The position numbers were made by a program, and so were the translations under genes. A stretch of DNA of 64,000 bases from Dehalococcoidia bacterium (GTDB taxonomy: Bacteria > Chloroflexota > Dehalococcoidia > Plut-88900): positions 1,312,001 through 1,376,000 of the forward strand of contig CBDBLV010000005.1 of NCBI GenBank assembly GCA_965207225.1. Reading direction: 5' to 3'. Under the pieces are notes generated by a model that was given only the letters and a program-made list of their open reading frames with translations, did no database searches and was not told where the DNA came from. This document shows positions 2,148-46,202 of this stretch, one piece after another; the stretch's first letter is position 1, and every line of letters starts with the position of its first letter.

Positions 2148-2840
2148 TTCAGTTGTGGGTCTCGTCTTCCGTTCTGTCTGCTGGGTTTTGGGTCGGCGAT
2201 GGAAGGCCCGGGACTCTGGTGCAGGATGACTATGGCACCTACGCCGACGCTGGCAGCATCGGCGGCGTCCTGCCGTATCCCCACACATGCCATTGGGGGA
2301 CTTGCCGGTGTCGAGGGCGTCCCTGGGTGGGGCAATCCGTCCTGCATCAGCGCTCGACCGCTCAGCGGGACAGCATTCGGCTCGAACCGTCACTGTGGAA
2401 CGAAGTCCGCATACGGTGACGGCGGTGGAGCCGCGTAGGGGCTCTGAGGCCCTAATCCCGGTAACGCCGGGCCGTACAATTTCGCCGACGAGTCAATGCC
2501 AGCGACATAGGCGTCCCAATACAGGGAGCACCGATTCGGTAGAGGTCCCAAGAAGGGGCTGTACCGCGTAGAGCAGATGGACCTTCCATCGCCTGGAAGT
2601 TAGGGAAGGGGTACGGGACCCGTGTTGAGGAGATGGCGTCCCCGACGTCTCGGGGATGACGCTTTCGCTTGTGCCGCAACCTGCTTGCCTCGCAAGGGGG
2701 GCGATTGGCCGGTTCGCTCCTACGGGAGGGGAGAGGTATTGGGATGGGCTAGGGCGTTGAGTCCTCGGGATCGGGTCTCGGGGGCTTCCCCGGGTTTTTG
2801 GTTCCTCCTTTGATGATGTGAGTTAGTGTTCGATCGAACG
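2148..2840 (-). ncRNA. Candidate structured ncRNA, copy 1 (closing stem 2195-2209/2579-2593)
   Basis: Own promoter; flanks shared with 45436-46144; long-range inverted repeat around a hairpin-dense interior; no credible protein. Confidence 0.5.
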
Positions 2841-2846
2841 CAGGGT

Positions 2847-2875
2847 ATGATAGTACAGTCGGACAGGTGTGTCAA
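2847..2875 (-). promoter_or_regulatory. Sigma70-type promoter TTGACA-17-TATCAT
   Basis: Reverse complement reads TTGACA cacctgtccgactgtac TATCAT. Confidence 0.7.
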
Positions 2876-2920
2876 GAGCAAATGTGCGGCTTTTGAAGAG
2901 AATATTCCCCGGCCCCTCAA

Positions 2921-3050
2921 GGGAACCCTCACCCCCTTTATCCCCCTCTCCCTTATAGGCCCTAAGGGAGAGGGGGAGAGAAGAACAGAGGCAGAGGTCG
3001 GCGCAGAAGCGCCGACCTCTGCCTCTAGTTCAGTACTAGGGAGGAGGGGG
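2921..3050. repeat. Composite REP/MITE-like element (GGGAACCCTCACCCC...hairpin...long stem-CTAGTTCA.TACT)
   Basis: Related copies at 18388-18540, 46301-46430 and partly 22010-22095; 17-18 bp perfect stems with differing sequences. Confidence 0.75.
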
Positions 3051-3261
3051 AAGGCTCGGTTCTGGGGGGATGCAAGTCTTAGCGTGGGTGGCCTGCAGGG
3101 TACCCACGAGAGGCACCGCTACGGGGATGGAGAGAGAAGCGCAGAGGCATGCACATGTACCAAGGCGCAGGTGCGTATCTCCGGACTGGAACTGGGGAAG
3201 GGATGCCCCTCCCGGCCACCCGGGATAAATATGAGTCCCACCCGCCCGCCCTGTTTTGTTT

Positions 3262-3302
3262 GAATTATCAGAAATGCTGCCTGGCAGCATTTCTGATAAT
3301 TC
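3262..3302. repeat. Perfect 20-bp inverted repeat with 1-nt spacer
   Basis: GAATTATCAGAAATGCTGCC-T-GGCAGCATTTCTGATAATTC. Confidence 0.95.
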
Positions 3303-3507
3303 GTTACCAGGGGGGATGCTATGGAAGGATGAGATTGGTGAGGAGAGAAGGGGGTTTAGGGAGGGGCGCTGTAGCTACCTCGCGGGGTCACGGGATGGGA
3401 GGGATGGACTTGTAGGGTACGGAGGTACCCGAGCCTCCCCCCGCCACCTGTGTGAATTCGACGGTTGCATGTGCCCGGCGGGACGCCCCACCTCCCCCAA
3501 CCCCTCT

Positions 3508-3534
3508 GGATTCCTGCCTCCGCAGGAATGACGG
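3508..3534. repeat. REP-like palindrome GGATTCC..GGAATGACGG family
   Basis: Related copies at 7053-7081, 18678-18705, 19537-19565 and 26019-26045. Confidence 0.75.
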
Positions 3535-3588
3535 TGAGAAAGACGTGCGAGTAGTGAGAGTCGAGGTGGATCTACGGTGGGAAGTTGG

Positions 3589-3614
3589 AGATTCCTCGCG
3601 GGGCATCGGAATGG
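3589..3614. repeat. REP-like palindrome AGATTCCTCGCGGGGCMTCGGAATGAC family
   Basis: Copies at 11314, 18556, 19394, 22125, 25913, 35100 (degenerate) and 47938, all in the same orientation. Confidence 0.85.
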
Positions 3615-3736
3615 GAAGGGGGGATGTCGGGATGGCGATGGAGATACGGGACAGTGCAACAGAACTTGGCCCTCCACCGCTCATACTTCGACGGGACTCA
3701 GTATGGGGGGCCGATATGTCCCGGGGGGAGGGCTGA

Positions 3737-5434
3737 TTAGATGGAGAGCATGGATTGGGCTTCGGAGACGGCGTTGGAGAGGGGAGCCATGCGTTTTTGG
3801 AGGGTGGCACGGTCAGTGATTTCCACGGCGTCCTGCTTGAGGTTTCGGGGGCTGACGGTGAGGCGGACGGGGATGCCTAGAAGGTCGGCGTCGTTGAACT
3901 TGACGCCAGGGGACTCGTCCCGGTCGTCGTAAAGAACTTCGAGTCCGGCGGCCTGGAGGGAGTCGTAGAGTTGGTCTGCGGCCTCGGCGACGCCGGGCCT
4001 GTCCAGGGAGAGGGCGCAGATGTGGACATGATATGGGGCAATGGGGTGGGGCCAGACGATGCCGTGCTCGTCGTGGTTCTGCTCCATGGCGGCGGCCATG
4101 AGCCTACCTACTCCGATGCCGTAGCACCCCATGACGATGGGCCTCTGCCGGCCTTCCTGGTCGGAATAGTAGGCGCCGAGGGACTCGCTGAAGAAGGTGC
4201 CAAGCTTGAAGACGTGGCCAACCTCGATGCCGCGGGTGATGGTGAGGGGCGTTCCGCACTGGGTGCAGCCCTGGCCCGCTTCCACCTCGGCGATGTCAGT
4301 GATGGCATCGGCTCGGAAGTCACGGGGGTAGTTGGCGTTGAGGAGGTGGGTGTCGGGCTTGTTTGCCCCGACCACGAAGTTGTCGCCGAGCTCAATGGAG
4401 TCGTCGGCAATGCACTTGAGGTCGCCGCGGCCGATGGGAGAAGCAGAGCCAGCAACGAGACCAGAGCCCTTGACCTCTTCGTCGGTGGCGAGTCGGAGGT
4501 CGGTGGCGTGGAGGAGGTTCTTCAGCTTGACGTCGTTGACTTCGAGGTCGCCGCGGATGACTACAAAGACTATTTCGCCGTCGGCGGTGTAGAAGACGGC
4601 TTTCAAGGTTTTGGATTCGGGAACGCCGACGAATTCGGCGAGACCCTTGATGGTCTTGACGCCGGGGGTGGAGACTTCTTCAAGGGGCAAGGGGCCGGTC
4701 CTGGGCTGGTCGGACTTGACGCCCGAGGCCCGCTCCATGTTGGCGGCGAAACCACAGCCGGGACACTGGACGATCTGGTCCTCGCCGCTTTCGGCGATGA
4801 GGATGAATTCGTGGGAGTCCTTGCCGCCAATGGCGCCACTGTCGGCCTCAACGGCGAGGGCGGGAAGGCCGCAGCGGCGGTAGATGTTCCTGTAGGCCTG
4901 GACCATCTTGTCATAGCTGACATCGAGGCCCGCCTGGTCGACGTCCATGCTGTAGAGGTCTTTCATATCGAACTCACGGACGCGCATGAGGCCGGCGCGG
5001 GGTCGTGGCTCATCACGGAGCTTGGTCTGGATCTGGTAGGGCATGCGGGGCATGTCCTTGTAGCTGTGGATGTGCTGGATGGCCATCTGGGTGATGACCT
5101 CCTCGTGGGTCGGGGCGAGGCAGAGGGGGCGGCCGCGTCGGTCCTGCAGCTTGAAGAGGTTGTCCCCGAAGGCGGAGGCCCGGCCGCTGGTCTCCCAGAG
5201 CTCAAGGGGCTGGATGACGGGCATTTTGACTTCCTGCCCACCGGCGGCGTTCATCTCTTCTCGGATGATATTTTCGATCTTGCGAAGGACCCTCCATGCG
5301 ATGGGCATGTAGCTGTAGACGCCGGCGGAGACCTGGTGGACCATGCCGGCCTTGAGCATGAGCCGGTGGCTGTTGGATTCGGCCTCGGCGGGCTCGCTCC
5401 TGAGGGTCTTTCCGAACATCCGGGAGAGGCGCAT
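3737..5434 (-). CDS. proS: Proline--tRNA ligase (with editing domain)
   Basis: LAPTHEE, RDEPRPRAGLMRVREFDMKDLYS, GIEVGHVFKLG, MGCYGIGVGR. Confidence 0.97.
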   Translation of the reverse strand: MRLSRMFGKTLRSEPAEAESNSHRLMLKAGMVHQVSAGVYSYMPIAWRVLRKIENIIREEMNAAGGQEVKMPVIQPLELWETSGRASAFGDNLFKLQDRRGRPLCLAPTHEEVITQMAIQHIHSYKDMPRMPYQIQTKLRDEPRPRAGLMRVREFDMKDLYSMDVDQAGLDVSYDKMVQAYRNIYRRCGLPALAVEADSGAIGGKDSHEFILIAESGEDQIVQCPGCGFAANMERASGVKSDQPRTGPLPLEEVSTPGVKTIKGLAEFVGVPESKTLKAVFYTADGEIVFVVIRGDLEVNDVKLKNLLHATDLRLATDEEVKGSGLVAGSASPIGRGDLKCIADDSIELGDNFVVGANKPDTHLLNANYPRDFRADAITDIAEVEAGQGCTQCGTPLTITRGIEVGHVFKLGTFFSESLGAYYSDQEGRQRPIVMGCYGIGVGRLMAAAMEQNHDEHGIVWPHPIAPYHVHICALSLDRPGVAEAADQLYDSLQAAGLEVLYDDRDESPGVKFNDADLLGIPVRLTVSPRNLKQDAVEITDRATLQKRMAPLSNAVSEAQSMLSI

Positions 5435-5565
5435 GTGTGGCTCCTGAGGTCTAGGTAGGTGGGAATTGTAGCACCTGGAGGCTAGCCGCTAAGGGAAGGG
5501 TTACATAAACTACAATCGGAGAGTCCTGGGCTTGAAGTCCGAGGAGTCCCGGAATACATAGGGTT

Positions 5566-6297
5566 ATGAATAAGCCGTTGCCGGTCTTAGTATCGTGGTC
5601 GTCGGGGAAGGACTCGGCGTGGGCGCTGCATACCCTACGGCAACAGCCTGAGAAGTACGAGGTCAGGGGGATTTTCACGACGGTGACCTCGATGTTCGAC
5701 CGGGTGTCTCTGCACTCTACGCCTGGGTGGATATTACGGGTGCAGGCGGAGCGGCTCGGGCTGCCGTTGTACGAGGTTCCGATTCCGTATCCCTGCCCTA
5801 ACGAGGCATACGAAGAGGCGATGAGGTTATTCCTGGACAGGATACTGACACTCCCTGAAGGGGAATCAGCGCGCCACCTGGCTTTCGGGGACCTGTTCCT
5901 GGAGGACATTCGCGGCTACAGAGAAGAGAAGCTGAGGCGCACGGGGTTCACCCCGATTTTTCCGATCTGGGGTAGTGATACGAGCGAGCTGGCGATGCGG
6001 ATGACGGGGTCGGGGCTGAAGGCTGTGGTCACGGCTGTGAATACGGCGGCGCTACCGGCGGAGTTTGCGGGTCGGTGGTTCGACCAGCAGTTTCTGGCTG
6101 ATTTGCCGTCGGGGGTGGACCCCCTGGGGGAGAACGGGGAGTTTCACACTTGCGTGGTAGACGGCCCGATGTTCTCCATGCCCATCGACGTGCGACCGGG
6201 CAAGGTGGTCCAACGTGAGATTGTGCTAAAGGCCGATGAGGACGACAACGATCTGGTCAATCCAGTCTACACCTACGCTGATGTGGAACGGGCCTAG
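5566..6297 (+). CDS. PP-loop ATP pyrophosphatase (diphthamide-synthase/MJ0570-like family)
   Basis: SWSSGKDS, FGDLFLEDIRGYRE and DPLGENGEFHT motifs. Confidence 0.85.
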   Translation: MNKPLPVLVSWSSGKDSAWALHTLRQQPEKYEVRGIFTTVTSMFDRVSLHSTPGWILRVQAERLGLPLYEVPIPYPCPNEAYEEAMRLFLDRILTLPEGESARHLAFGDLFLEDIRGYREEKLRRTGFTPIFPIWGSDTSELAMRMTGSGLKAVVTAVNTAALPAEFAGRWFDQQFLADLPSGVDPLGENGEFHTCVVDGPMFSMPIDVRPGKVVQREIVLKADEDDNDLVNPVYTYADVERA

Positions 6298-6303
6298 TGC
6301 AAA

Positions 6304-6987
6304 TTGGTTGACGGCGTGTTAAACATCGCACATAGGGGATATACGAGGGAATGGCCGGGAAATACGCTGGAGGCGATAGAGGCGGCGATTGGGCTGGGGG
6401 TGGATGCGGTGGAGGTGGACGTGCGGGAGACTGCAGATGGGTGTTTTATCCTGGCGCACGATGCGACTATTGAAGGTCGAACCATTGGGGATATGACGCT
6501 GCCAGAACTCATGGGAATTGATGTGGGGCTGAGGTGTCGGGTCCCGACGCTGGAGGAGGCGTTGGACGTGTGTCGGGGGGAGGTGGGGGTGGTGCTGGAG
6601 TTGAAGGATGTGAAGTCGATAGGGTGGTTTTTGGAGATTATTAAGGGGTCGGGGGAGGAGGGGCGGGTGGGGGTCTGTTCTTTTTACCCGGCGCTATTGA
6701 GGAAGGTGAAGGAGTCGGGGCTACGGATGGGGTTGATTGTGGATGCGCTGCCCCGGGAGCCAGTGGAGGTGTTGGAGGGGCTGGGGTGTGAGGTTATCGG
6801 GGTGCGGGCGCCTCACATCACGGCGTCGTTGGTGACTGAGGTGCAAGCCTCGGGGAAGATGGTGTTCGGGTGGGGGGTGGAGGATGACTCGGGAGTGGAC
6901 AGGTTGATGGGGATGGGGGTGGATGGGTTGGTGTCGGACTTTCCGGATGTGGTGAGGGGGAGGGTAAGCGTAAACCTGGACACTTAG
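6304..6987 (+). CDS. Glycerophosphodiester phosphodiesterase family protein
   Basis: IAHRG, NTL, VEVDV..T.DG..IL.HD, GVDGLVSDFP. Confidence 0.88.
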   Translation: MVDGVLNIAHRGYTREWPGNTLEAIEAAIGLGVDAVEVDVRETADGCFILAHDATIEGRTIGDMTLPELMGIDVGLRCRVPTLEEALDVCRGEVGVVLELKDVKSIGWFLEIIKGSGEEGRVGVCSFYPALLRKVKESGLRMGLIVDALPREPVEVLEGLGCEVIGVRAPHITASLVTEVQASGKMVFGWGVEDDSGVDRLMGMGVDGLVSDFPDVVRGRVSVNLDT

Positions 6988-7084
6988 TCTGGTGTGGTCC
7001 CACCCCGCTCATACTTCGAGAGCCTCAGCACGAGCGGCCCCACCCCGGGGACGGATTCCGGCTCGGGGGCCGGAATGACGGATG

Positions 7085-8308
7085 TTAGTTGAGGGAGTTG
7101 GGGCCCCAGCGGGTTTCGACGTAGTCTTCGACCATCTGGACGAAGTCGTTGGCGATGGTGGGGCCTTCGAGGAAGGTCTGGCGTTTGCCGTCTACGAAGA
7201 CGGGGGCGCGAGGAGATTCGCCGGTACCGGGGAGAGAGATGCCGATATCGGCGATGCGGGACTCGCCGGGGCCGTTAACCACACATCCCATCACGGCAAC
7301 CTTGAGGGTCTCGGCGCCGGCATAGCGGGACTTCCATTCGGGCATCTTGTTGTCGAGGTGCTGCTGGATGTCCCGGGCGAGTTCCCGGAAAAGGGTGGAG
7401 GTGGTGCGGCCGCAGCCGGGGCAGGCTGTTACTGCGGGTCGGAAGGAGCGGAGGCCGAGGGATTGAAGGACCTCCTGGCAGAGGCGAACTTCCCGGGCGC
7501 GATCTCCGCCGGGCTCGGGAGTCAGGCTGGAGCGGATAGTGTCTCCGATACCTTCGTATAGGAGGATAGAGAGAGCGGAGGTGGTGGCGACGATGCCTTT
7601 TGTGCCCATTCCGGCCTCGGTGAGTCCGAGGTGCAGGGGGAAGTCGCATTGTCGGGAGATTTCCCGGTAGGCCTCGACCATCTGATTAAGGCGGGAGACC
7701 TTGCAAGAGATTATGATCTTGTCTTCGGGGAGTCCAAGGTCTACGGCGGCGGAAGCGCTGGATATGGCGCTTTCTACTAGCGCTTCGCGTTCGACTTCGT
7801 CGCCGGTTAGGGGGTCAGGGTTGCGGGAGTTTTCGTCCATCTTCCTGGCCAGGATGTCGGGGTCCAGACTGCCGGCGTTGACGCCGATGCGGACGGGCTT
7901 ATCGAGGTCACGGGCGACTTCAATGAAGGTTGTGAAGTTCTGGTCGTGGCGGGGGCCTCGTCCGACGTTGCCAGGGTTGATCCTGAACTTGGCGAGGGTC
8001 CGGGCGCAGTCGGGGTGGGTGCGGAGGAGTCGGTGGCCGATGAAGTGGAAGTCGCCTATTAGTGGCACGGTACAACCGATGTCATCCAAACGTTCACGGA
8101 TGCGGGGTACGGCATCTGCAGCGGCATCGTTGTTGACGGTTACACGTACGAGCTCGGAGCCGGCGTCGGCGAGGAGTTTGACCTGGGAGACAGTGGCGTC
8201 AATGTCGGCGGTGTCTGTGTCGGTCATGGACTGGACGACTATCCGGCTGCCGCCGCCGATGGGAACACCGCCTACGTATACTTGCTTGGTGAGGCGTCGG
8301 TTGCTCAT
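7085..8308 (-). CDS. ispG: (E)-4-hydroxy-3-methylbut-2-enyl-diphosphate synthase
   Basis: [46 protein letters not shown]. Confidence 0.96.
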
Positions 8309-8330
8309 GTAGATATTTTAGCAGTCGGGG

Positions 8331-9080
8331 CTACTGGGCGGTAATACCGCCGTCCACGACGAGTTCCGAGCCTGTAACGAAAGAGGACTCGTCGGAGGCG
8401 AGGAAGAGGATAACGTTGGCGACTTCCTCGGGTTCTCCGAAGCGGCCCATGGGGACCCGGGCGAGATTGTCGGCAAGCTTGTCCGGGAAGTCCATCACCT
8501 CGTGCATCATGGGTGCGTTGATGGGGCCCGGGTGGACGGAGTTAGCCCTAACGCCGAGCTTTGCGTTCTGGATGGCGGTTGACTTGGTGAAGATCCGCAC
8601 CGCGGCCTTGGACGCGCCATAGGATGCGGTATTGGGCCCCGCGACGATGCCGGCAGTGGAGGAGAGGTTGACTATGGACCCGTTGCCGTGGCGCTTCATC
8701 TCGGAGAGGACGGCCTTGGTGCCGAGAAAGACGCCCTTGGCATTGACGGCCATGGTGCGGTCCCAGAGGTCTGCGGTCTCGTCCTCTATGCGGTCACGCC
8801 TGATGACGCCTGCGTTGTTAACGAGGATGTCGAGCTTGCCGTAGCGGTCTATGGCGAGGGCAACGGCGTCGGCCCAGGCGGACTCGGAGGTGACATCGAG
8901 GGGGGTGAAGGAGATTTCGCCGCCGGAATGCCGGATTTCGTCGGTGAGGAGCCGGCCTTCTTCTAGGAGAACGTCACCGACGACAACGGAAGCGCCTTCG
9001 GTGGCGAAGCGACGGGCGACGGCAGCGCCGATGCCTCGGGCCCCGCCGGAAATGAGAGCTACTTTTCCTTCAAGCCTCAT
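8331..9080 (-). CDS. Short-chain dehydrogenase/reductase
   Basis: GGARGIG, NNAG and YGASK catalytic motif. Confidence 0.92.
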   Translation of the reverse strand: MRLEGKVALISGGARGIGAAVARRFATEGASVVVGDVLLEEGRLLTDEIRHSGGEISFTPLDVTSESAWADAVALAIDRYGKLDILVNNAGVIRRDRIEDETADLWDRTMAVNAKGVFLGTKAVLSEMKRHGNGSIVNLSSTAGIVAGPNTASYGASKAAVRIFTKSTAIQNAKLGVRANSVHPGPINAPMMHEVMDFPDKLADNLARVPMGRFGEPEEVANVILFLASDESSFVTGSELVVDGGITAQ

Positions 9081-9176
9081 GATGGTTGCTCCTTGGGTGA
9101 GAACCTTTTGCCGTCCCTGAGCCGTTACTGTATTGCCAGATACGAGTGCTAGAAAACTGCGGGAACTAAATGAGGT

Positions 9177-9926
9177 CTACCGGGCGTTGATACCTCCGTC
9201 GATGATGAGTTCGGAGCCGGTCATGAAAGAGGACTCGTCGGAGGCGAGGAAGAGGACGGCGCTGGCAATTTCGTCGGGCTGGCCGAGCCTCTCCATGGGG
9301 ACCATTAATTCGAGCTGTCGCACCTTTTCGGGGAATGGCAGAAATTCCTGAATCAGGGGGGCATTGACGGGCCCCGGGTGTACGGAGTTGGCGCGGACCC
9401 CGAATGAAACGTTCTGAATGGCGGTGGACTTGGTGAAGAGCCGGACGGCGGCCTTGGAAGCACCGTAGATGGCGGAGTTGGGGCTGCCGATGTTCCCGTA
9501 GGACGATGACATATTGACTATGGCGCCATTGCCATGGCGTTTCATTTCAGGAAGGACGGCTTTGGTCCCAAGGAAGACGCCCTTGGCATTTATCTCGAAG
9601 ATGCGGTCCCAGCTTTCGGCGGTCTCGTTTTCTATGAGTTCACGTTTTGTGACTCCGGCGTTGTTGACGAGGATGTCGAGCTTGCGGTAACGGTCGATGG
9701 TGAGGGCTACGGCGTCGGCCCAGGAGGATTCGGAGGTGACGTCCAGAGGCGTGAAGGTTATGTTGGCGCCGGACTGCTGAAGCTCAGCGGCTAGAGTCCG
9801 GCCTTCTTCGACAAGGATGTCGCCTATTACGACGGATGCGCCTTCGGCGATGAAGCGTCGGGCGATGGCGGCGCCGATGCCTCGGGCGCCGCCGGAGATG
9901 AGGGCTACCTTTTCCGGGAGTCTCAA
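9177..9926 (-). CDS. Short-chain dehydrogenase/reductase (tandem paralogue)
   Basis: Same motifs; TTG start with GGAGGAG RBS; co-linear with the 8331-9080 protein. Confidence 0.9.
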   Translation of the reverse strand: MRLPEKVALISGGARGIGAAIARRFIAEGASVVIGDILVEEGRTLAAELQQSGANITFTPLDVTSESSWADAVALTIDRYRKLDILVNNAGVTKRELIENETAESWDRIFEINAKGVFLGTKAVLPEMKRHGNGAIVNMSSSYGNIGSPNSAIYGASKAAVRLFTKSTAIQNVSFGVRANSVHPGPVNAPLIQEFLPFPEKVRQLELMVPMERLGQPDEIASAVLFLASDESSFMTGSELIIDGGINAR

Positions 9927-9945
9927 ACCGACTCCTCCGGCTGAA

Positions 9946-11196
9946 CTAGGATGGTTGCGGCGGAGGGACCGGGATGTGTTTGACGAAACGATCGTCAAAG
10001 GGGGCGTGAGAGAGAACCTCGGGGCCGTTCCTGGTGATGAGGATCTCCTCTTCCAGCTTGACGCTCTCCCTAGCCCCGCGCTTGCTGGCCAGGCCTTCAA
10101 GGGAGAGGACCATGTTTTCCTGGAGGACCTCGTCGTCGTTGCCGAAGCCGCTCCAGGACTGGTCGGGCCAGTAGATGCAGGGCCATTCGTCGGACATGCC
10201 GTCGCCGTGGGCGATCATGGGGTAGCGCTGGTACTTGTACTCCTCGGGATACTCGGGGCACTTTTCGGCGATTTCCTGGAAGTGGGCGCCAACCTGGAAA
10301 TGTTTCAGGGACTCGTAGATGAAGTTGTAGCCGAGCTTGTAGGCTTCCATCTGCTCGTCGTTGGGGGGGCCGTCGCCGCAGAGGTAGGTGCGGGAGAAGT
10401 CGGCGAAGTAGCCCATGGGTCCGGACATGTCGGTGTCGTAACCGACGAGGTCACCGGGGCGAACTATTCGGTCGGTGGATCCCTGACCCCAGGGGTTGGT
10501 GTTGCCGCCCGCGGAGAGGAGCCGGGCGTCCATATGCTCACCGCCGTGCTTGAGGTTGGTGTAGGTCATGACGGCGAATAGCTCCTGCTCGGTGACGCCG
10601 GGCTTGATGGCGTCCCGGACTGCGCAGATGGAGATATCGGCGACGGCGCATGCCTGGCGGATGAGGGAGACCTCGTCTTCGGTCTTAATGGATCGGGCGC
10701 GTTCGAAGGGGATGCGGGCGTCGGCGAGGGGAATCTCGTGATTGCGAAGGGACTCCATGCTGTTGAAATCGAGCCTGTCGAAGCCCAGCCGCTGTCCAAG
10801 AATGCCCTTCTCCTTGAGTACAGACGTGATGCGGTCGCCCCAGAGTCGGGCGGCGTCCTCGGCGTACTGACCGGCGGGGAAGAACTCGAACAGGGTGCCT
10901 TTCTCAAGGGCCCAGGAGCCGTCGTCAGCATATTCGGAGAGCCAGGGTTCACCTTCCTGGGGGACGATGGCGTACTGGCCGAAGGTCCGCATTCCGAAGA
11001 CTCCAGCATGGCGGTGACCGGTGGCGTAGCGGATGTTGACGGGGTCGAAAATGAGGATGCCGCCGAGGTCGGCCTTGGCCATTTCGGCCTGGAGCCGGGC
11101 GAGGCGCTCTCTCTTGAGTCGGGCGACGTCTACTCGTTCGTCAAAGTCGACGGTCTCCTGGCCGAGCAGGTCACGATTGGAACCGAAACGCACCAT
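9946..11196 (-). CDS. M24 peptidase-fold protein, DddP (DMSP lyase)-like
   Basis: FDPVNIRYATG, RLLSAGGNTNPW, YDTD..GPMGYFADFSRT, QRY...HGDGMSDEWP, VKLEE. Confidence 0.8.
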   Translation of the reverse strand: MVRFGSNRDLLGQETVDFDERVDVARLKRERLARLQAEMAKADLGGILIFDPVNIRYATGHRHAGVFGMRTFGQYAIVPQEGEPWLSEYADDGSWALEKGTLFEFFPAGQYAEDAARLWGDRITSVLKEKGILGQRLGFDRLDFNSMESLRNHEIPLADARIPFERARSIKTEDEVSLIRQACAVADISICAVRDAIKPGVTEQELFAVMTYTNLKHGGEHMDARLLSAGGNTNPWGQGSTDRIVRPGDLVGYDTDMSGPMGYFADFSRTYLCGDGPPNDEQMEAYKLGYNFIYESLKHFQVGAHFQEIAEKCPEYPEEYKYQRYPMIAHGDGMSDEWPCIYWPDQSWSGFGNDDEVLQENMVLSLEGLASKRGARESVKLEEEILITRNGPEVLSHAPFDDRFVKHIPVPPPQPS

Positions 11197-11491
11197 GAGG
11201 GCACCTCCGCTGGTTAGTAGGGCTGGCGTCGGGGGTGATTATACTACCGGTGGGGGTGTTTGTGGTTATGGGTGGGGAGGTCTTGCGAGGAGTTATGCGA
11301 GTAGGTAAGTCCTAGATTCCTCGCGGGGCCTCGGAATGACAGGGATGTTCGGAGGCAGGGTAGAAGAGTGTTGATAGTCAGATCGGCGTGGGCCTCCCCC
11401 CGCTCGACCCTTCGACGCCGCTCAGGGTGAGCGGCCCCACGCCACCCCGGGCAACCGCAAGGGATTGCCCTTACAGGGGATGGGGAGGGGG

Positions 11492-12610: not shown

Positions 12611-12623
12611 CGGGGCTGGGTGG

Positions 12624-15344: not shown

Positions 15345-15411
15345 AAGGGTCCTCTAGGGCTTGCTTCCACGAACGGACAGGGTGCAATGAAGTCTGAGAA
15401 CGGTAAGCGGG

Positions 15412-15975: not shown

Positions 15976-16052
15976 GGCAAAGATCCTCCGGTCGGGAGGT
16001 GGTGGGGGCAAGTGTAATATCGGGAGGGGGCGGGGGCAAGGGGAGGGGGTGG

Positions 16053-17278
<1,226 letters not shown>

Positions 17279-17280
17279 GG

Positions 17281-18165
17281 TTATTCCTGGGTAGGCTCGG
17301 GTGTTTGCTCTTCTTCAGGTTCGGGGGAAAAGGTTTCGGAGGCCTCTTCTTCGGGTTCGACCATGGCCTCCTCGTAGGCCTTCTGCTGCTCTTCGGCGAG
17401 GCGCTGTCGGAGCTCGACGCCTTCGAGGACGGCGTCGGAGATCTTGCCGCTGATGAGCTTAATAGAGCGGATGGCGTCGTCGTTGCCGGGGATGGGGTGA
17501 TCGATGAGGTTGGGGTCGCAATCGGTATCAACGATGGCAACGAGGGGAACGTCGACGCGCTGGGACTCCTTGACGGCGATGTCCTCCTTGCCGGGGTCGA
17601 CGATGAAAACGGCGTCGGGGAGCTTGGTCATCTCCTTGATCCCGCCGAGGAGGCGGTTCATACGGACGATTTTCTCCTCGAGCTTCTGGGCTTCTTTCTT
17701 GGGGAGGGTCTCGAAAACGCCCTTCTCCTTCTGGTCTTCGAGGCGTACAAGGTGGTCTATTCGGGACTGGATTGTGCCGAAGTTGGTGAGGGTGCCGCCG
17801 AGCCATCGGATATTGACGTAGTGCATGCCGCAGCGGGTGGCTGCATCGTGGATTACGTCCTGGGCCTGTTTCTTGGTGCCGACGAAGAGGACCTCGCCGC
17901 CTTCCATGACGAGGGAGCGGACGAAGTCACAGGCCTCGTTGAGCTTGGTGATGGTCTGCTGAAGGTCGACGATGTGGATGCCGTTGCGCTGGGTGAAGAT
18001 GTAGCGCTTCATCTTGGGGTGCCAGCGTCGGGTCTGGTGTCCGAAGTGGACACCCGATTCGAGGAGGAGCTTCATTGTGACGGGTTCAGGAAGTTGCTCT
18101 TCCTGGGTTTCGACCACAGGCGCTTCAGCGGCGGGTTGGGGTTCCGTTACGGTCTCTTGTACCAT
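17281..18165 (-). CDS. rpsB: 30S ribosomal protein S2
   Basis: [33 protein letters not shown]. Confidence 0.98.
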
Positions 18166-18283
18166 GCTTAAGTTGCTCTATTCCTTCCTGCATAGCCTGA
18201 AAATGGGCGCGAGGGAGTATAGCACAGGGCAATAATTGGGGACAATTGGATGGGGGTGGGGCGCCCAGGGAGTGATGGGGCGT

Positions 18284-18335
18284 TTGATTGAAGATTGATT
18301 GAACGTTGATTGAACTCGTAGCTGGTTTGATTGAA
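18284..18335. repeat. Four phased direct repeats TTGATTGAA
   Basis: Copies start at 18284, 18295, 18306 and 18327. Confidence 0.85.
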
Positions 18336-18387
18336 TGACGCCTAGAGTAGAAAACCAGGGGCGTGGTGCATTTTGGGTGGGCCGGAG

Positions 18388-18705
18388 GGGAACCCTCACC
18401 CCCTTGGTCCCCCTCTCCCCCCCGAGGGACTCGGGGCAGGCTCTTAGGGCCTTTAAGGGAGAGGGGGAGAGAAAAACAGAGGGAGCCGTTGGCGCGCCTG
18501 CGCCAACGGCTCCCTCTAGTTTCATTACTGGGGAGAGGGAACAGGACACCACCCCAGATTCCTCGCAGGGCATCGGAATGACAGTGTGAGGGGCGTTGGT
18601 TGGTGGTTGCAGCACTGCGCCGTTCCGCTCTTGAGACCCTTCGACTACGCTCAGGGCGAGCGGAACCCCCACCCATAGGTTCCCGATCGGGGTCGGGAAT
18701 GACGG
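18388..18705. repeat. Cluster of REP-like palindromes and composite element
   Basis: Contains members of four dispersed repeat families. Confidence 0.75.
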
Positions 18706-18716
18706 GAAGGGGGTGT

Positions 18717-19224
18717 AGGCGATGGAAGGACCATGGCCAGGGCGCAGGGGCCGGGGGGCCAAGCTGCGCCAGACCCGCAAGTCGGCAGGGCGAGAGGGAG
18801 TATCCCCTTGCGGCCTGTCCGTATGCGGGAAGCGCTCCATCATTCGGAGGGATGGGAGCACAGACTCTCTGCCGTCTCTAGGTGAATGGGAGCCTCCGAG
18901 ATTTGAGACGGGGGAGTAGTCCCGGGGCGCGATGGCCTCGGGGGACCCGACAAAGTCGGGGTAGAGCCCCTCGCACATGGCGGGGGCTAGACGCCCCAAT
19001 GAGGGGGCGCAGCCGCGGGGGAGACCTGGATGACAGGTGTGCCGCGGAGAGTCGATGGACCTTCCATCGCCTGGAGGAAAGGGTGAGGGGAGGTGACGCG
19101 TGTCGTAGGCCGGGCGGTCGCGCAGCGCCCGGGTGCGACGTGAGCTGATCAGGCTGGTGCGGCTCATAAACTCCTTATTCCTTTCCTGTGTGATGGGCTC
19201 CGAGGTACGAGGTCGGTGGCCCTG
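18717..19224 (-). ncRNA. Candidate structured ncRNA, copy 3 (closing stem 18717-18734/19055-19072)
   Basis: AGGCGATGGAAGGACCAT...ATGGACCTTCCATCGCCT enclosing many hairpins; upstream promoter. Confidence 0.45.
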
Positions 19225-19230
19225 GGGAGT

Positions 19231-19259
19231 AGTATAGCACGGGGGTTCAGGTAGAGCAA
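19231..19259 (-). promoter_or_regulatory. Sigma70-type promoter TTGCTC-17-TATACT (extended -10 TG)
   Basis: Read from the reverse complement. Confidence 0.6.
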
Positions 19260-39944: not shown

Positions 39945-42014
<2,070 letters not shown>

Positions 42015-43124: not shown

Positions 43125-43174
43125 GGCTTTTTCTCGGTTAGATTTTAGCCGATTGTGAGCTTAGGAAAAGGGCG

Positions 43175-44383
43175 CTATTTGTCGACGAAAACGAGGGTGC
43201 GCCGTTTGCCGACTTTCATGCGTGCTCCGGGCACGAGCTTGGACCGGTTAACGGCGTACTCGGAGAGCTTGCTGCCGTCCAGTTCGACGCCGCCGCCGTC
43301 GATGAGGCGTCGGGCTTCGCCGGTGGAAGATGCGGCTTTGTGTTCAACGAGGAGTCGGGGGATGAAGGCGGCATCTCCGTCGCTCAGGGAAGCGAGGGGG
43401 ACTTCGGTGACGATGTCGTCGGCTTCTTTGCGTTGAACGATGCGCTCGAACTCGGTCTCGGCGGAGGCGGCGGCCTGGGGGGAGTGGAACTGGGCGACGA
43501 TTTCCCGGGCGAGGCGTTTCTTGAGGTCAAGGGGGTTCACGGAGCGGGAGGCGAGGGCCTGGGACAAGTCGGAGACTTCGTTGTCGGGGAGGTCGGTGAC
43601 CAACTCTAGGTAGTTGGGGATCAGATCGTCGTTGAGGCGCATGACCTTGAAGTAGGTGTCCTTCGGTGGTTCGGCGACGCCGATGTAGTTGTCGAGGCTC
43701 TTGCTCATGCGCTGGACGCCGTCGGTGCCGACCAGGATGGGGACGAGGAGGCACTGCTGGGGTTTCTGGCCCACCATGCCCTGGAGCTCGCGCCCGAGGA
43801 GCAGGTTGAACTTCTGGTCGGTGCCGCCGAATTCGACGTCTGCTTCGACTACTGTCGAGTCATAGGCCTGGAGGAGAGGGTAGAGAAGCTCGGTTATGGC
43901 GATGGGCCGGTTGGCCTTGAAGCGGTTGGAGAAGTCCTCCCGGGCGAGGATCTGGGCGACGGTGAAGCGGCTGGTGAGGGAGATGACCTCGGTGAGGGTG
44001 AACTTGCCGAACCAGTCGCTCTGCCATCGGACCTCGGTACGGTCTTTGTCCACGACTTTGAAGAACTGCTCCATGTAGGTGCGGGCGTTCTCCTGTACCT
44101 GCTCGGCGGAGAGCATCTGCCGGGTGGCGGACTGGCCGCTGGGGTCGCCGATCTGGGCGGTCCAGTCGCCGACGATGAGGATGACGCGGTGGCCGAGCTC
44201 CTGGAACTGGCGCAGCTTGCGCAAGCCGACGGTGTGGCCGAGATGGATATCGGCGCGGCTGGGGTCGAAGCCCATCTTGAGGCGAAGGGGTCGGCCGGAG
44301 TCCAGGAGGTCTTCAAGCTCCTGCTGGCGGATGATCTCGGCGACGCCACGGGTGAAAAGGTGAGCGTATTTTTGATTAGTCAT
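43175..44383 (-). CDS. tyrS: Tyrosine--tRNA ligase
   Basis: GFDPS..HLGH, YPLLQAYD, GGTDQKFN, RMSKS, S4 domain. Confidence 0.97.
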   Translation of the reverse strand: MTNQKYAHLFTRGVAEIIRQQELEDLLDSGRPLRLKMGFDPSRADIHLGHTVGLRKLRQFQELGHRVILIVGDWTAQIGDPSGQSATRQMLSAEQVQENARTYMEQFFKVVDKDRTEVRWQSDWFGKFTLTEVISLTSRFTVAQILAREDFSNRFKANRPIAITELLYPLLQAYDSTVVEADVEFGGTDQKFNLLLGRELQGMVGQKPQQCLLVPILVGTDGVQRMSKSLDNYIGVAEPPKDTYFKVMRLNDDLIPNYLELVTDLPDNEVSDLSQALASRSVNPLDLKKRLAREIVAQFHSPQAAASAETEFERIVQRKEADDIVTEVPLASLSDGDAAFIPRLLVEHKAASSTGEARRLIDGGGVELDGSKLSEYAVNRSKLVPGARMKVGKRRTLVFVDK

Positions 44384-45306
44384 CGGCTGGGACTCGCGGC
44401 GAGGACTTTGCGGGCCACTTTCACGTCGTTGTTCATCTGCTCAATCAGCTCCGGGACGCCGGAGAAGCGCATGTCGCTGCGGACGAGGGCGAGGAAGTCG
44501 ACGGAGAGGTGCTGGCCGTAGATGTCCTCGTCGAAGTCGAAGATGAAGACCTCCGTGGCGCGGGTCTCGCCTTCGAAGGTGGGTTTGCTGCCTACGTAGG
44601 TTATGGAGTCCAGCATGCGGTCGTCCAGCAGGGCACGGGTGGCGTAGATGCCGTCGGCGAGGAGGGCGCGGTCGGGTGGGACCTGGATGTTGGCGGTGGG
44701 GAAGCCGAGGAGGCGGCCACGCTTGTCTCCGACGACCACGGGGCCCGAGAGGCGGAAGGGTCGGGCCATTAGGCGCATGGCGAGGTCGACGTTGCCGGTG
44801 GAGAGGGCTTCGCGGATGGCGGTACTGCTGACGGTGAGGTCGCCTTCGCGGATTACGTCCTGGCAGACGACTTCGTAACCGTGTTCAGTTCCGAGTCGCG
44901 TCAGGGTGGGCACGTCTCCCTCCCGGCCCTTGCCGAGGGCGAAGTCCTGGCCGCAGACTAGGGCTTTCATGTTCAGCCTGGTCACAAGCTGTTGGACGAA
45001 TTCCGAGGCCCTGAGCTGGGACACTTCCCGGGTGAAGTTGATGGCGACGACGTGGTCGATGCCGAGGGCTTTGATTGCTTCGAGGCGGGAGTCGAGGTCC
45101 ATGAGGTACTGGGGATGGAAGGCCGGGGCGAGGACGGTCAACGGATGGTTGTGGAAGGTTACGACGGCGGAGTCCAGGCCGCGACGCCCGGCTTCTTCGA
45201 TTGTGCGCTGAAAGAGGGTCTTGTGGCCTAGGTGGACGCCATCGAACACTCCGATGGCTACGGCTGTGTGGGTGTCGGGCGGGGGGCCGGCGAGCTCTTC
45301 CAGCAA
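44380..45306 (-). CDS. ribF: Bifunctional riboflavin kinase/FAD synthetase
   Basis: GVFDGVHLGH, VSSTAIR, GRLLGFPTAN. Confidence 0.96.
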   Translation of the reverse strand: MLEELAGPPPDTHTAVAIGVFDGVHLGHKTLFQRTIEEAGRRGLDSAVVTFHNHPLTVLAPAFHPQYLMDLDSRLEAIKALGIDHVVAINFTREVSQLRASEFVQQLVTRLNMKALVCGQDFALGKGREGDVPTLTRLGTEHGYEVVCQDVIREGDLTVSSTAIREALSTGNVDLAMRLMARPFRLSGPVVVGDKRGRLLGFPTANIQVPPDRALLADGIYATRALLDDRMLDSITYVGSKPTFEGETRATEVFIFDFDEDIYGQHLSVDFLALVRSDMRFSGVPELIEQMNNDVKVARKVLAASPSR

Positions 45307-45435
45307 AGGGTGGACCTATATCCGAATACGACCCCTACCGAGGGATAGGGGTCACTGGGTAGGATGGTAGCACGGGCATCGGGACAAGTCTACCAAGCAG
45401 ACGGATTCGGGGGGAAGGGGAGGCCCTGGCGTGTA

Positions 45436-46167
45436 TTCAGTTGTGGGGTTTCGGGGTTTGGGTTTGTCTGTTGGGTTTTGGGTCGGCGATGGAAGACGCA
45501 CCTGGTGAGCCGTTGGTCCCTACCATGCGGTGTTCCAGCTGTCCAGGGCCATGGAGGTCCGCCGGGGGGCGGATTGCAGCCGGCCGCACCCTTATGCTCG
45601 ATGTGTGCTCCGGCTGTTCGGGCAGACAGCCGGGCTTTGACCCGCTCCCAGGCGCCTAAGGGCGCAGTGGGGGCCAGTGATCGGGCGGGTAGCCCCCGGG
45701 GGAATTTCTATTACGTGGCGCAACCACGGGTCCTGGCCGCCCCAGCTACCCCTGTGCTTGATTTGGTGTGGCGTAAGCTCGCCGACGGGCCAACCTCCGA
45801 GAGAGCTACTCTCGTGCGGGGTTTGCCGGCCCGCCACCCCTATCTTGATATAGCGCAAGTTCGCTACAGTCCGACCTCCGAGACGGTCTCTCGGCGGGGG
45901 GTGGCCGGTCTGCTTGGCTTCTATCCAGGGCGTCTTTCCATCGCCTGGGGGACAGGGAAGGGACACGGAACCCAGTGGGATGAGGAGATGGCGACGTTCG
46001 CTTGTGCCGCAACCTTCCTGCCTCGCAAGGGGGGCGATTGGCCGGTCGCCCCTACAAGAGAGGGGAGAGGTCTTGGGATGGGCTAGGGCGTTGAGTCCTC
46101 GGTGTCGGGTCTCGGGGGCTTCCCTGGGTTTTTGGTTCCTCCTTAAGGTGGTGTCGGGTCTAGACTT
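45436..46167 (-). ncRNA. Candidate structured ncRNA, copy 2 (closing stem 45485-45505/45925-45945)
   Basis: Shares about 200-nt and 50-nt flanks with 2148-2810; different hairpin-dense interior; own promoter. Confidence 0.5.
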
Positions 46168-46173
46168 AGAACA

Positions 46174-46202
46174 AATATAAGGCTCAAGTGTTTGCATGTC
46201 AA
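46174..46202 (-). promoter_or_regulatory. Sigma70-type promoter TTGACA-17-TATATT
   Basis: Reverse complement reads TTGACA tgcaaacacttgagcct TATATT. Confidence 0.7.

Follow-up and report, generated by a model that had tools for sequence, protein, structure and literature searches.

Results

Three promoter-bearing cassettes precede mnmA, rpsB and ribF

The window analyzed here is a 64,000-nt stretch of contig CBDBLV010000005.1 from a Dehalococcoidia bacterium. Three of its intergenic loci (2148, 18717 and 45436; copies 1, 2 and 3) lie upstream of mnmA, rpsB and ribF, respectively, and their features are collected in Table 1. The sequence GGCGATGGAA occurs with its complement at all three loci, 354-461 nt apart. 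Exact matches to the arm 10-mer are located at 2195(+)/2584(-), 18718(+)/19062(-) and 45485(+)/45936(-), and the units measure 399, 354 and 461 nt from helix to helix. With at most one mismatch allowed, the window has 16 matches compared with 6.79 ± 2.96 in shuffled sequences (0/100 reached 16). The inner stem pairs GGTCC with GG(G/A)CC at 2195 and 18718 and GACGC with GCGTC at 45485. These results bear out the inverted arms and the co-varying inner stem described in an earlier sequence-only reading of the window.

That reading called the interiors hyper-folded, and a folding comparison with shuffled sequences agrees. The minus-strand z values are -4.66, -8.02 and -5.30 for copies 1, 2 and 3 (0/100 shuffles as stable, each). 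The plus strand is about equally stable (z = -4.75, -8.53 and -3.63), and therefore stability alone cannot choose the strand. The claim that the interiors share no alignable sequence was too strong; the first ~35 nt, the module CUCCnCCGUC...GACGG and the loop CCCUCCGA are common to the interiors and do align. The ~200-nt leader and ~50-nt CA-rich tail reported as shared by two copies are real, but they belong to the 2148 and 45436 loci, so the "copy 2" of that reading must be the 45436 locus. The 18717 locus has a leader and tail of its own.

The proposed minus-strand promoters with 17-nt spacing were recovered, two by a promoter scan and the third, at 19259, by conservation within its subfamily. 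The scan does not report the third because its -35 matches only 3/6; every one of the 7 subfamily copies is preceded by this 29-mer type. No start codon follows the SD-like box of copy 1, and the adjacent GC hairpin, read on the plus strand, is terminator-like and faces the promoter. Positions 2656-2774 of the copy 1 leader are an optional 120-nt module missing from the orthologue in genome G008. Only on the minus-strand RNA does the copy 1 3' arm make a U-G wobble pair with its 5' partner. Homology between the copy 1 locus and the cassette-free G005 and G007 loci stops just upstream of the mnmA-promoter -35.

Table 1 Features of the three cassettes in the window and of the genes downstream
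Feature	Position	Strand	Remarks
mnmA, downstream of copy 1	912..2051	-	PF03054, 3e-78
Putative native mnmA promoter, TTGCCG-17-TATGCT	2073..2102	-	
Copy 1 CA-rich tail, type t1	2147..2194	-	predicted single-stranded
Copy 1 3' arm GGGCCTTCCATCGCC	2195..2209	-	
Copy 1 interior, type 4 of 12	2210..2578	-	collinear with TerL-like gene segment
Copy 1 closing-helix 5' arm GGCGATGGAAGGTCC	2579..2593	-	
Copy 1 leader	2594..2840	-	includes the optional module 2656-2774
Copy 1 SD-like box AAGGAGGAACC (2800-2810) and GC hairpin (2777-2794)	2777..2810	-	5'-proximal
Copy 1 promoter type P1, TTGACA-17-TATCAT	2847..2875	-	scan 11/12; same 29-mer type before 19 cassettes
rpsB, downstream of copy 2	17281..18165	-	PF00318, 2.7e-94
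rpsB own promoter, TTGTCC-18-TATACT	18216..18245	-	kept in 6/6 genomes, cassette present or absent
19-bp hairpin terminator, copy 2 to rpsB	18477..18518	-	
Copy 2 3' arm	18718..18732	-	
Copy 2 interior, type 1	18733..19056	-	translation aligns with TerL-like protein
Copy 2 5' arm	19057..19071	-	
Copy 2 leader, subfamily-specific	19072..19224	-	
Copy 2 promoter type P4, TTGCTC-17-TATACT, TGn before -10	19231..19259	-	unreported by scan
ribF, downstream of copy 3	44380..45306	-	PF06574, PF01687
Copy 3 CA-rich tail, type t1	45436..45484	-	predicted single-stranded
Copy 3 3' arm GCGTCTTCCATCGCC	45485..45499	-	
Copy 3 interior, type 3	45500..45929	-	
Copy 3 5' arm GGCGATGGAAAGACGC, one A bulged	45930..45945	-	
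Copy 3 leader	45946..46167	-	
Copy 3 SD-like box (46134-46144) and hairpin (46111-46128)	46111..46144	-	
Copy 3 promoter type P2, TTGACA-17-TATATT	46174..46202	-	scan 11/12

The cassettes form a 48-member family restricted to one genus

The sequence-only reading had suggested a wider search for arm pairs, which recovered far more than three copies: the window loci are 3 of 48 cassettes in the 4.03-Mb genome and the family occupies about 0.8% of it. Each cassette consists of a sigma-70 promoter, a 100-340-nt leader, a 15-bp closing helix around a hairpin-rich interior of 200-550 nt, and an unpaired CA-rich tail. The promoter is present in 47/48 cassettes, with a constant spacing of about 60 nt to an SD-like box further downstream; this box occupies +23 to +30 in the predicted RNA. 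Four unrelated promoter sequences are used, all with the -35/-10 geometry intact. The interiors are of twelve types, grouped into two stem superclasses, and have little sequence in common. Promoters, interiors and tails reassort between copies, which upholds the earlier view of a constant scaffold carrying exchangeable structured interiors. Of 39 genomic instances of the box plus A-run motif, 38 fall at cassettes, and flank-motif matches do so in 34/37, 38/39 and 31/35 cases.

The outer 9 bp of the closing helix are invariant in 48/48 copies, and in 33/33 type-0 relatives save two G-U changes. Such constancy despite 12 interior types is more suggestive of a specific recognition site than of a generic stabilizing element. 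Cassettes were found in all eight same-genus genomes searched and essentially nowhere else, showing that the family is restricted to one genus, a group of sponge-associated Dehalococcoidia.

As the sequence-only reading anticipated, the cassettes match no Rfam family and no partner gene adjoins them. It had also suggested a retron-like or other RT template, with the arms as a1/a2-type repeats, or a nuclease guide RNA. Inverted repeats do surround a structured RNA behind a promoter and the genome encodes four RT ORFs, but all four are more than 15 kb from any cassette and the Rfam covariance models without a match include those for retrons, group II introns and omega-RNA. The repeated unit includes the promoter, which is not itself in the transcript, and this speaks against an RNA-mediated copying route. 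None of the flanks varies in the manner of a guide, and nothing else points to a guide RNA. An RT template or guide is highly improbable.

Wobble pairs modestly favor the promoter-sense strand, and the cassettes encode no protein

The closing helix has a probability of 0.99 in 41 full-length folds, and the CA-rich tail is 81% unpaired compared with 45% overall. The SD-like box is 41% unpaired, so no special openness is predicted for it. Helices common to both strands contain G-U and A-C cells in a ratio of 45:20, a modest bias that is reversed in type 2 (4:5). In the type-0 alignment, one pair of helix 220-229/259-268 is U-G in 19, C-G in 8 and U-A in 6 cases, and another is G-C in 18 and G-U in 14; these variants work only on the promoter-sense strand. 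On that strand, each of the five or six wobbles in the inner closing stem is G-U. The opposite, G-rich strand is at least as stable by alifold (-102 versus -89 kcal/mol), and double changes within type 0 are limited to 4/71 pairs.

Comparison of 39 translated cassette frames with Pfam and PHROG gave no match. Type 0 has no 3-periodicity (p = 0.30), and variable sites in type 1 are distributed 39/31/33 over the codon positions. The copy 2 interior has one open frame, in which variation lacks a codon-position pattern, and a frame is open in 7/7 copies of one subfamily. Open frames are expected because the cassette strand has only 17% T and 19% A. These results show that the cassettes encode no protein.

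The folded core resembles a segment of a terminase-like gene

From helix to helix, the core aligns in sense orientation with ~410 nt internal to a stand-alone terminase-large-subunit-like (TerL-like) gene resident in the genome. It is collinear, arms included, with codons ~229-365 of an ORF related to the TerL genes of tailed phages. Folding of the gene segment gives z = -4.10 and the same closing helix. The collinearity indicates that the core is derived from a fragment of a phage-type DNA-packaging (terminase-like) gene. Unlike the gene, the cassettes have one segment only and no longer show coding constraint, and this segment stands between a promoter-leader and a tail with no counterpart in the gene.

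A decayed protein gene was the contrary case named by the sequence-only reading. The core does come from a terminase-like coding segment, but without coding constraint and with the helix and promoters kept. Amplified, functionless pseudogene fragments would account for the homology and for the subfamily with open frames in 7/7 copies. It is very unlikely that the cassettes are nothing else, given that the same ~410 nt of a 1.39-kb gene is always taken and always bounded by the helix, that the flanks are foreign to the gene, that the helix is invariant, and that codon-position patterns are lacking where base composition predicts open frames.

Cassettes are co-oriented with downstream genes that keep their own promoters

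Cassettes lie in promoter-bearing intergenic regions just upstream of unrelated housekeeping genes. The downstream gene is co-oriented with the cassette in 43/47 cases (p = 3e-9 versus 0.5). The 47 regions comprise 25 divergent, 18 tandem co-oriented, 3 tandem anti-oriented and 1 convergent; genome-wide, 498/3306 adjacent gene pairs are divergent. The t1 tails directly adjoin host promoters, and downstream host genes keep their own promoters. G007 lacks the rpsB-upstream cassette and G002 has it inverted, with the rpsB promoter kept in both, so that rpsB at least can do without the cassette. The cassette-gene gap has no intrinsic-terminator-like feature in 28/43 cases and a 15-19-bp hairpin terminator in 15/43; such strong terminators are more in keeping with a free-standing RNA gene than with a leader.

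A tentative alternative is that the cassettes are free-standing genes for trans-acting large ncRNAs, with the RNA as product and the siting next to genes reflecting only safe harbours and selection against head-on transcription. The helix and core motifs would form a protein recognition platform, possibly for the TerL-like ATPase-nuclease, whose own mRNA would carry the ancestral fold; alternatively, C-rich loops would titrate G-rich (SD-like) sequences. The terminators, the retained host promoters, the invariant outer helix, and the CUCCnCCGUC...GACGG and loop motifs common to different types favor this reading. So does the folding of the TerL-like segment with the same closing helix, as does the sense orientation of cassette RNAs to that gene. 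However, 12 interior types in two stem superclasses are hard to fit to one 3-D fold, and a trans RNA does not require the 5'-region and co-orientation bias. The TerL-like gene lies among housekeeping genes with no cassette adjoining, and its family (3330 homologues) is far wider than the one-genus cassettes.

Cassettes turn over without signs of transposition

The same site in sister species holds a different type, an inverted copy or none. Type-0 identity to the query copy is 85-93% within genome G000 compared with 73-80% in G001, G002 and G006. Rearrangement breakpoints coincide with cassettes. Other REP-like modules surround cassettes, and metagenome contigs end at them. Terminal repeats, target duplications and a transposase were sought at the cassettes and none was found, which makes recombination the probable mode of spread.

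Dispersed REP- or MITE-like DNA repeats that are selfish or neutral, with arms acting at the DNA level, incidental hairpins, promoters as passengers and no RNA function, would explain the variable presence and orientation, the concerted evolution, and the breakpoints, REP-like modules and contig ends. This is unlikely, because the unit reaches 100-340 nt past the 5' arm and ~55 nt past the 3' arm, with flanks nearly never found without arms, and because all four promoter sequences have consensus geometry. The strand-specific G-U bias and the orientation bias also argue against it. A filled/empty site pair has no target-site duplication, no long element shares the arms, and the sole nearby IS has different ends and brackets 0/48 cassettes.

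Discussion

Neisseria Correia elements, with their RNase III sites, and enterobacterial ERIC/IRU are promoter-bearing dispersed intergenic repeats. The cassettes resemble them in having many copies by unrelated genes, inverted repeats that give a long transcript hairpin, and the capacity to supply promoters. Unlike these elements, the cassettes are 5-8 times longer, place a complete strong promoter, together with a leader, beyond the inverted repeats, enclose a variable, coding-gene-derived folded core, and lack unit-end terminal repeats, target duplication and a cognate transposase. OLE, GOLLD, ROOL, raiA and HEARO/omega-RNA are orphan large bacterial ncRNAs in Rfam, and HEARO is multicopy. 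The cassettes are like them in size, dense structure and own promoter, but differ in having about 48 copies per genome, 12 interior types, no adjacent protein gene and a one-genus range.

Putative mobile promoters are highly similar promoter-containing regions before non-homologous genes in one genome (PMC3575422). The cassette upstream regions are alike in this; the cassette promoter differs in being tied to a 0.4-0.8-kb structured RNA, with host genes retaining downstream promoters. The cry3A transcript is a case of STAB-SD stabilisation. A ribosome at the SD-like site of such 5' stabilisers blocks RNase J (PMC5737220). The cassettes likewise have a strong SD-like box, AAGGAGGA, that no start codon follows, in a genome that encodes RNase J, but their box is not predicted to be especially unpaired. 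On the opposite strand, its complement is the U-tract of a terminator-like hairpin. The box would be a candidate for a stabilising role.

We favor, with a probability of roughly one half, a reading in which the cassette is a portable, cis-acting promoter and structured leader RNA module set directly upstream of host promoters. Its own promoter would produce a 0.37-0.85-kb non-coding RNA whose closing helix clamps the folded core, and copies would spread and stay alike through homologous recombination or gene conversion rather than transposition. The 5' SD-like box and hairpin, with the closing helix, may act as signals for RNA stability or processing, and the genome encodes both RNase J and RNase III. 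The C-rich, G-poor tail may be a Rho-loading or standby platform, and Rho is encoded as well. Where no terminator-like feature intervenes, the cassette could provide the gene with a long leader and an additional strong promoter upstream, and where the hairpin terminator is present it would insulate the gene from the cassette.

Cassette architecture

Three intergenic stretches of the window are bracketed by the 10-mer GGCGATGGAA and its complement, the arrangement claimed in the sequence-only reading. At one mismatch or fewer, GGCGATGGAA has 16 matches in the window versus 6.8 ± 3.0 in shuffled sequences, and 0/100 shuffles reached 16. The helix-to-helix units of copies 1, 2 and 3, which precede mnmA, rpsB and ribF, are 399, 354 and 461 nt long. 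Their minus-strand folding z scores of -4.66, -8.02 and -5.30 against shuffles bear out the earlier description of strongly folded interiors, and the plus-strand values are similar (-4.75, -8.53 and -3.63). Minus-strand promoters with 17-nt spacing had been proposed at all three loci. Two were recovered by the promoter scan (table); the third was not reported by the scan, but its type precedes 7/7 members of the copy 2 subfamily. A leader and a CA-rich tail are shared by two copies, as had been stated of copies 1 and 2, but the loci concerned are those at 2148 and 45436.

Coordinates of cassette parts and other features in the window and in the source genome (G000, contigs C1-C5)
Feature	Position	Strand	Detail
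Arm pair, copy 1	window 2195/2584		GGCGATGGAA and complement
Arm pair, copy 2	window 18718/19062		GGCGATGGAA and complement
Arm pair, copy 3	window 45485/45936		GGCGATGGAA and complement
Copy 1 promoter, TTGACA-17-TATCAT	window 2875->2847	minus	promoter scan, 11/12
Copy 2 promoter, TTGCTC-17-TATACT	window 19259->19231	minus	weak -35 (3/6), unreported by scan; TGn before -10
Copy 3 promoter, TTGACA-17-TATATT	window 46202->46174	minus	promoter scan, 11/12
Copy 1 leader module	window 2656-2774		120 nt
Flanking repeat modules (two kinds)	window 2941-2977, 2987-3026, 18473-18522, 46322-46358, 46368-46406
TTCAATCAA, four copies	window 18284-18335	minus	just upstream of rpsB promoter
Direct repeat, ~33 nt	window ~18551-18585, ~19391-19425		both sides of copy 2, by eye
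Promoterless cassette (number 2) and matching promoter/SD-box fragment	G000:C1:66886-67043 and C1:69717-70023
TerL-like ORF	G000:C1:233687-235075		462 aa; locus L132:88-1476
Second divergent arm pair	near G000:C5:241563-241970		locus L133
IS481-like element, 1313 bp	G000:C1:39109-40421
IS481-like element, 1313 bp	G000:C4:457395-458705
IS481-like element, 1313 bp	G000:C4:503490-504800
IS481-like element, 1313 bp	G000:C5:~1203745-1205060
Reverse-transcriptase ORF	G000:C2:158087-158773
Reverse-transcriptase ORF	G000:C5:1548409-1549095
Reverse-transcriptase ORF	G000:C5:1553608-1554405
Reverse-transcriptase ORF	G000:C5:1671488-1672288

The three loci belong to a larger family. The source genome (4.03 Mb, 5 contigs, 92% complete, 8% contamination) contains 48 copies, which together make up ~33 kb (0.8% of its length). 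On the minus strand of the window the parts follow in the order promoter, SD-like box with GC hairpin, leader, 5' arm, interior, 3' arm and CA-rich tail. A sigma-70-type promoter is present in 47/48 copies. Four unrelated sequence types (P1-P4) keep the hexamers and their spacing, and each is common to 7-19 cassettes before unrelated genes. Putative mobile promoters are likewise near-identical promoter regions before non-homologous genes in one genome. About 35 nt after the promoter comes AAGGAGGAACCAAAAACC followed by the GC hairpin, with 38 of its 39 genome hits at cassettes. In the predicted RNA the SD-like AAGGAGGA occupies positions +23 to +30, and the copies inspected have no ATG, GTG or TTG over the following ~30 nt; STAB-SD 5' stabilisers share this arrangement of an SD-like site near the 5' end with no start codon after it. 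The leader measures about 70-300 nt with optional modules, and the tail about 50 nt.

In 48/48 copies the 15-bp closing helix has the same outer 9 bp. Its inner 5-6 bp are either GGTCC/GGACC or GACGC/GCGTC, complementary in both versions and in some copies interrupted by one bulged base. Closing helix probability is 0.99 in 41 full-length folds (366-845 nt). The tail, C/A-rich by inspection, is 81% unpaired in the predicted folds versus 45% for the whole RNA. BLAST sorts the interiors into 12 types with 14, 7, 6, 5, 4, 2, 2, 2, 2, 2, 1 and 1 members and lengths of 198-553 nt; window copies 1, 2 and 3 are types 4, 1 and 3. The claim that the interiors share no alignable sequence needs qualification: several types have CUCCnCCGUC...GACGG modules, sometimes duplicated, and the loop CCCUCCGA in common.

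The leaders are themselves modular. One leader module of copy 1 is cleanly absent from the orthologue in the relative G008, and one metagenome contig joins window position 2660 to 2771, likewise without it. The sole promoterless cassette has a matching promoter and SD-box fragment 2.7 kb upstream; a 527-aa ORF on the opposite strand lies between the two, and the arrangement may reflect insertion into the leader. The genome motif search found no 'empty' scaffolds in which the leader joins the tail without the helix. The window has a single leader-like hit, near 34253, which matches weakly and lies downstream of a gene.

The earlier reading recognised no known RNA class, in line with the 0 matches of Rfam 15 covariance models at gathering score across the whole window. 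The families covered include group I/II introns, RNase P, tmRNA, OLE, GOLLD, ROOL, HEARO and raiA. At E ≤ 1 nothing matched copy 1 (window 2147-2875), and a type-0 copy gave only matches below gathering score, such as whalefall-1 (25.5 bits; gathering score 37), located in the promoter and leader. Other matches at permissive thresholds were hairpin noise outside the cassette.

Promoter-sense strand and coding capacity

The strand cannot be chosen from folding energy, since it is the opposite, G-rich strand that folds better. Four other lines of evidence favour the promoter-sense strand. First, promoters occur in that sense alone, and the promoter scan found none on the plus strand at the window loci. 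Second, helices predicted on both strands contain G-U and A-C cells in a ratio of 45:20 (22:8, 8:4, 4:5, 5:1 and 6:2 by type). Third, one type-0 helix has U-G 19, C-G 8 and U-A 6 at one pair and G-C 18 and G-U 14 at another, variation that pairs only on the promoter-sense strand. Fourth, all five or six wobbles of the inner closing stem are G-U on that strand. Covariation in type 0 is limited, with 99.1% of cells paired and double changes in 4/71 pairs; double-change cells number 17 versus 5.8 ± 1.7 in shuffles, and slid controls give ~44% pairing.

Searches of Pfam and PHROG with 26 + 13 stop-free frames from four cassettes returned nothing with E < 0.1, and 3-periodicity is absent from type 0 (p = 0.30). 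One frame is open in 7/7 type 1 copies. It was rejected as coding, since its variable sites show no codon-position pattern (39/31/33). The promoter-sense strand is only 17% T and 19% A, and open frames are therefore expected.

A terminase-like gene as the probable source of the core

A 462-aa ORF on contig C1 contains a divergent arm pair (GACGATGGAAGGTTCC ... GGAACCTCCATCGTC) at a spacing of 408 nt, and a second copy of the pair is on contig C5 (table). The ORF has weak matches to PHROG terminase large subunits (5713, E = 1.5e-4; 5909, E = 7.8e-4). No Pfam family matched it, and PF17289 had 0 hits in a six-frame scan of the source genome. At E ≤ 1e-5 the ORF has 3330 homologues; some contain PF17289, and many are Dehalococcoidia proteins annotated as 'hypothetical'. 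The protein has conserved motifs across both halves, which we take to be ATPase and nuclease motifs, and the neighbours of the gene are housekeeping genes with no prophage. The ORF looks like a domesticated ATPase-nuclease and is treated here as a candidate for one.

The segment of this TerL-like gene between the arms folds with z = -4.10 and has the same closing helix. The frame-0 translation of copy 2 is 31% identical to the TerL-like protein over 111 residues (E = 1e-5), and copy 1 is collinear with the gene over the whole unit at the DNA level. Types 4, 6 and 11 give blastn HSPs inside the segment (E 1e-8 to 1e-5), and the reversed control gives 2 HSPs. The cassette RNA strand is the sense strand of the gene. 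Since the protein family long predates the cassettes and is much more widespread, we read the cassette core as derived from the TerL-like gene. The residues that the arms encode, DDGRF and TSIV, occur only in this genus, and GGGGF and (P)SVV stand in their place in outgroup homologues. It follows that within this lineage the gene either gave rise to the inverted repeat or received a copy of it. The possibility that a cassette is itself a terminase large subunit gene was rejected on the basis of the missing Pfam/PHROG match and codon-position pattern and the representation of only about 410 nt of the gene.

Distribution

BLAST found dozens of matches in each of 8/8 same-genus genomes, and 0/6 other genera had any. 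The exact pattern was present in only 3/8 same-genus relatives and in 0/32 genomes from other genera. A covariance model of the leader end and 5' arm matched 5/5 congeners with at least 31 matches each; elsewhere in the class its sole hit across 145 genomes was marginal (E = 6e-4). A scan with a 19-mer, covering one genome per species (185,579 species), returned 78 stretches, 70 in records titled 'MAG: Dehalococcoidia bacterium' and 8 as single hits elsewhere, which is about chance level. Public sequencing runs with the family are sponge, coral and marine metagenomes; no RNA run was among those matching window 1500-3300. Literature searches, supplementary files aside, found no description of the cassette family and no paper that pairs 'Dehalococcoidia' with 'structured RNA'.

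Turnover and spread

Promoter types, interior types and tails reassort, as illustrated by type 0, which occurs with P1 (8 copies), P2 (4) and P3 (2) and with both tail types. The site upstream of rpsB holds type 1 in the source genome and G008, another type in G005, a type-4-like cassette in G001, an inverted cassette in G002 and none in G007, and rpsB's own promoter is conserved in 6/6 genomes compared (these five same-genus relatives and G000). Upstream of ribF, G000 has type 3 and G002 a type-0-like unit. In G000 and G008 a cassette and proS lie upstream of mnmA, and synteny breaks exactly at the cassette end (window 2052-2147). In G005 and G007 mnmA has no cassette, its neighbouring gene differs and homology stops right before its -35, which places a rearrangement breakpoint at the cassette. 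At these two loci (L045, L046) mnmA is divergent from a small gene, presumably rsfS, across a 110-nt spacer.

The only clean filled/empty pair examined compares a filled site in G001 with the empty site at ~291.9 kb of contig C4 in G000, where a TTCAATCAA repeat module replaces the cassette; each insert has a REP-like module on one side and the host -35 on the other. No duplicated bases are present in this pair, and the arm flanks (CCA... / ...GAC) are not duplications. The inverted repeats are not the unit ends: conserved sequence continues past both arms, as leader and promoter beyond the 5' arm and as tail beyond the 3' arm, and the flank motifs rarely occur without arms (34/37, 38/39 and 31/35 motif hits at cassettes). 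A search for an autonomous element combining cassette arms with a transposase found none, and far-apart or orphan arms were only 2-mismatch noise. The cassettes thus have none of the three hallmarks of a MITE or non-autonomous TIR transposon, namely TIRs at the unit ends, a target-site duplication (judged from the one pair) and an autonomous partner.

Mobilisation by the IS481-like element was also rejected, since its ends differ (TIRs begin TGTATAGACCGGGGA) and 0/48 cassettes are bracketed by it. This element always sits at the centre of a REP-like palindrome (TCCCCCTCTCCCTTAGGGCC / GGCCCTAAGGGAGAGGGGGA) distinct from the cassette arms and therefore targets another repeat family. The sequence-only reading had offered a retron-like RT template. 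Flanking a1/a2 inverted repeats characterise retrons, and the closing helix fits this feature, which is not retron-specific. The idea fails on location: no RT lies directly downstream of a cassette, and the closest cassette-RT distance is about 16.6 kb. Of the four RT ORFs, two lie in frames of 586 aa and score identically, and are probably one mobile intron or retroelement present twice; the other two (641-652 aa) have a split RVT_1 match.

Metagenome contigs from four runs aligned to window 1-20000 break at repeats and include one leader indel; none bridged an empty site. By BLAST, copies are more alike within one genome than between species, from which we infer that the family probably spreads and is homogenised by homologous recombination or gene conversion.

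Position relative to downstream genes

The nearest downstream gene is co-oriented in 43/47 cases and lies 41-955 nt away. Cassette regions comprise 25 divergent, 18 tandem same-pointing, 3 tandem against and 1 convergent arrangement, whereas only 15% of adjacent gene pairs are divergent genome-wide. Beyond the window, the N-termini of downstream genes look by eye like those of rpoB, gyrB, nusA, rpsO, uvrA, leuS, def and folD. About 45 nt past the t1 tail (...CCCCACAACTGAATAA) comes the -35 of a host promoter; the t2 tail is usually followed by a 15-19-bp hairpin and a T-rich run. A predicted terminator of this hairpin kind separates cassette and gene in 15/43 cases and none does in 28/43.

The intergenic regions at cassettes are mosaics of repeat modules. 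Two further modules flank the cassettes (table), one a palindrome with 15-bp arms (TCCCCCTCTCCCTTA / TAAGGGAGAGGGGGA) and the other a hairpin with 18-23-bp arms and a T-rich run, read as a predicted portable terminator. The four TTCAATCAA copies upstream of rpsB compare with 0.28 expected by chance, and the module also occurs in the rpsB region of relatives and at the 'empty' site on C4; it may be a protein-binding array. The direct repeat around copy 2 reads CCCAGATTCCTCGC[A/G]GGGCATCGGAATGACAG.

Discussion

The cassettes form a lineage-specific, recombining family of self-promoted, non-coding, structured units with a terminase-derived core, located on the 5' side of many genes. The preferred mechanism, with a probability of roughly one half, is a predicted cis-acting portable promoter and leader. 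The helix, the 5' box with its hairpin, and the tail would then stabilise the RNA, direct its processing or load Rho; the source genome has a single gene each for Rho, RNase J and RNase III. Counting against a cis role are the intact host promoters, the termination of a third of the cassettes before the gene, and at least one site that tolerates cassette loss or inversion. The main rival, which we regard as distinctly less probable than the cis mechanism, is a family of RNAs that act in trans and are recognised via the invariant helix.

A further proposal, less probable again, describes a new RNA gene class in which a fragment of a domesticated terminase-like gene was captured between promoter-leader and tail, amplified to ~50 copies and diversified into a dozen folds around the invariant helix. 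Its RNAs would act via the helix with a dedicated partner. The simplest partner would be the TerL-like ATPase-nuclease, whose own mRNA would carry the ancestral fold, with the RNAs as decoys or regulators. Alternatively, the cassette DNA could supply dispersed packaging-recognition mimics that bias its own transfer and recombination.

The cassettes have a practical consequence in that they break assemblies and mark rearrangement points in the source genome and its relatives. The family lends itself, as a natural experiment, to studying how modular RNA elements disperse and remain similar through recombination with no transposase. If transcribed as predicted, about 1% of these genomes would encode some 50 strongly promoted, highly folded RNAs before core genes. 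The family would then count among the few documented structured non-coding RNA families to have originated in a protein-coding fragment, and would supply promoters genome-wide, or control at the RNA level, in a lineage of sponge symbionts that is uncultured and ecologically abundant.
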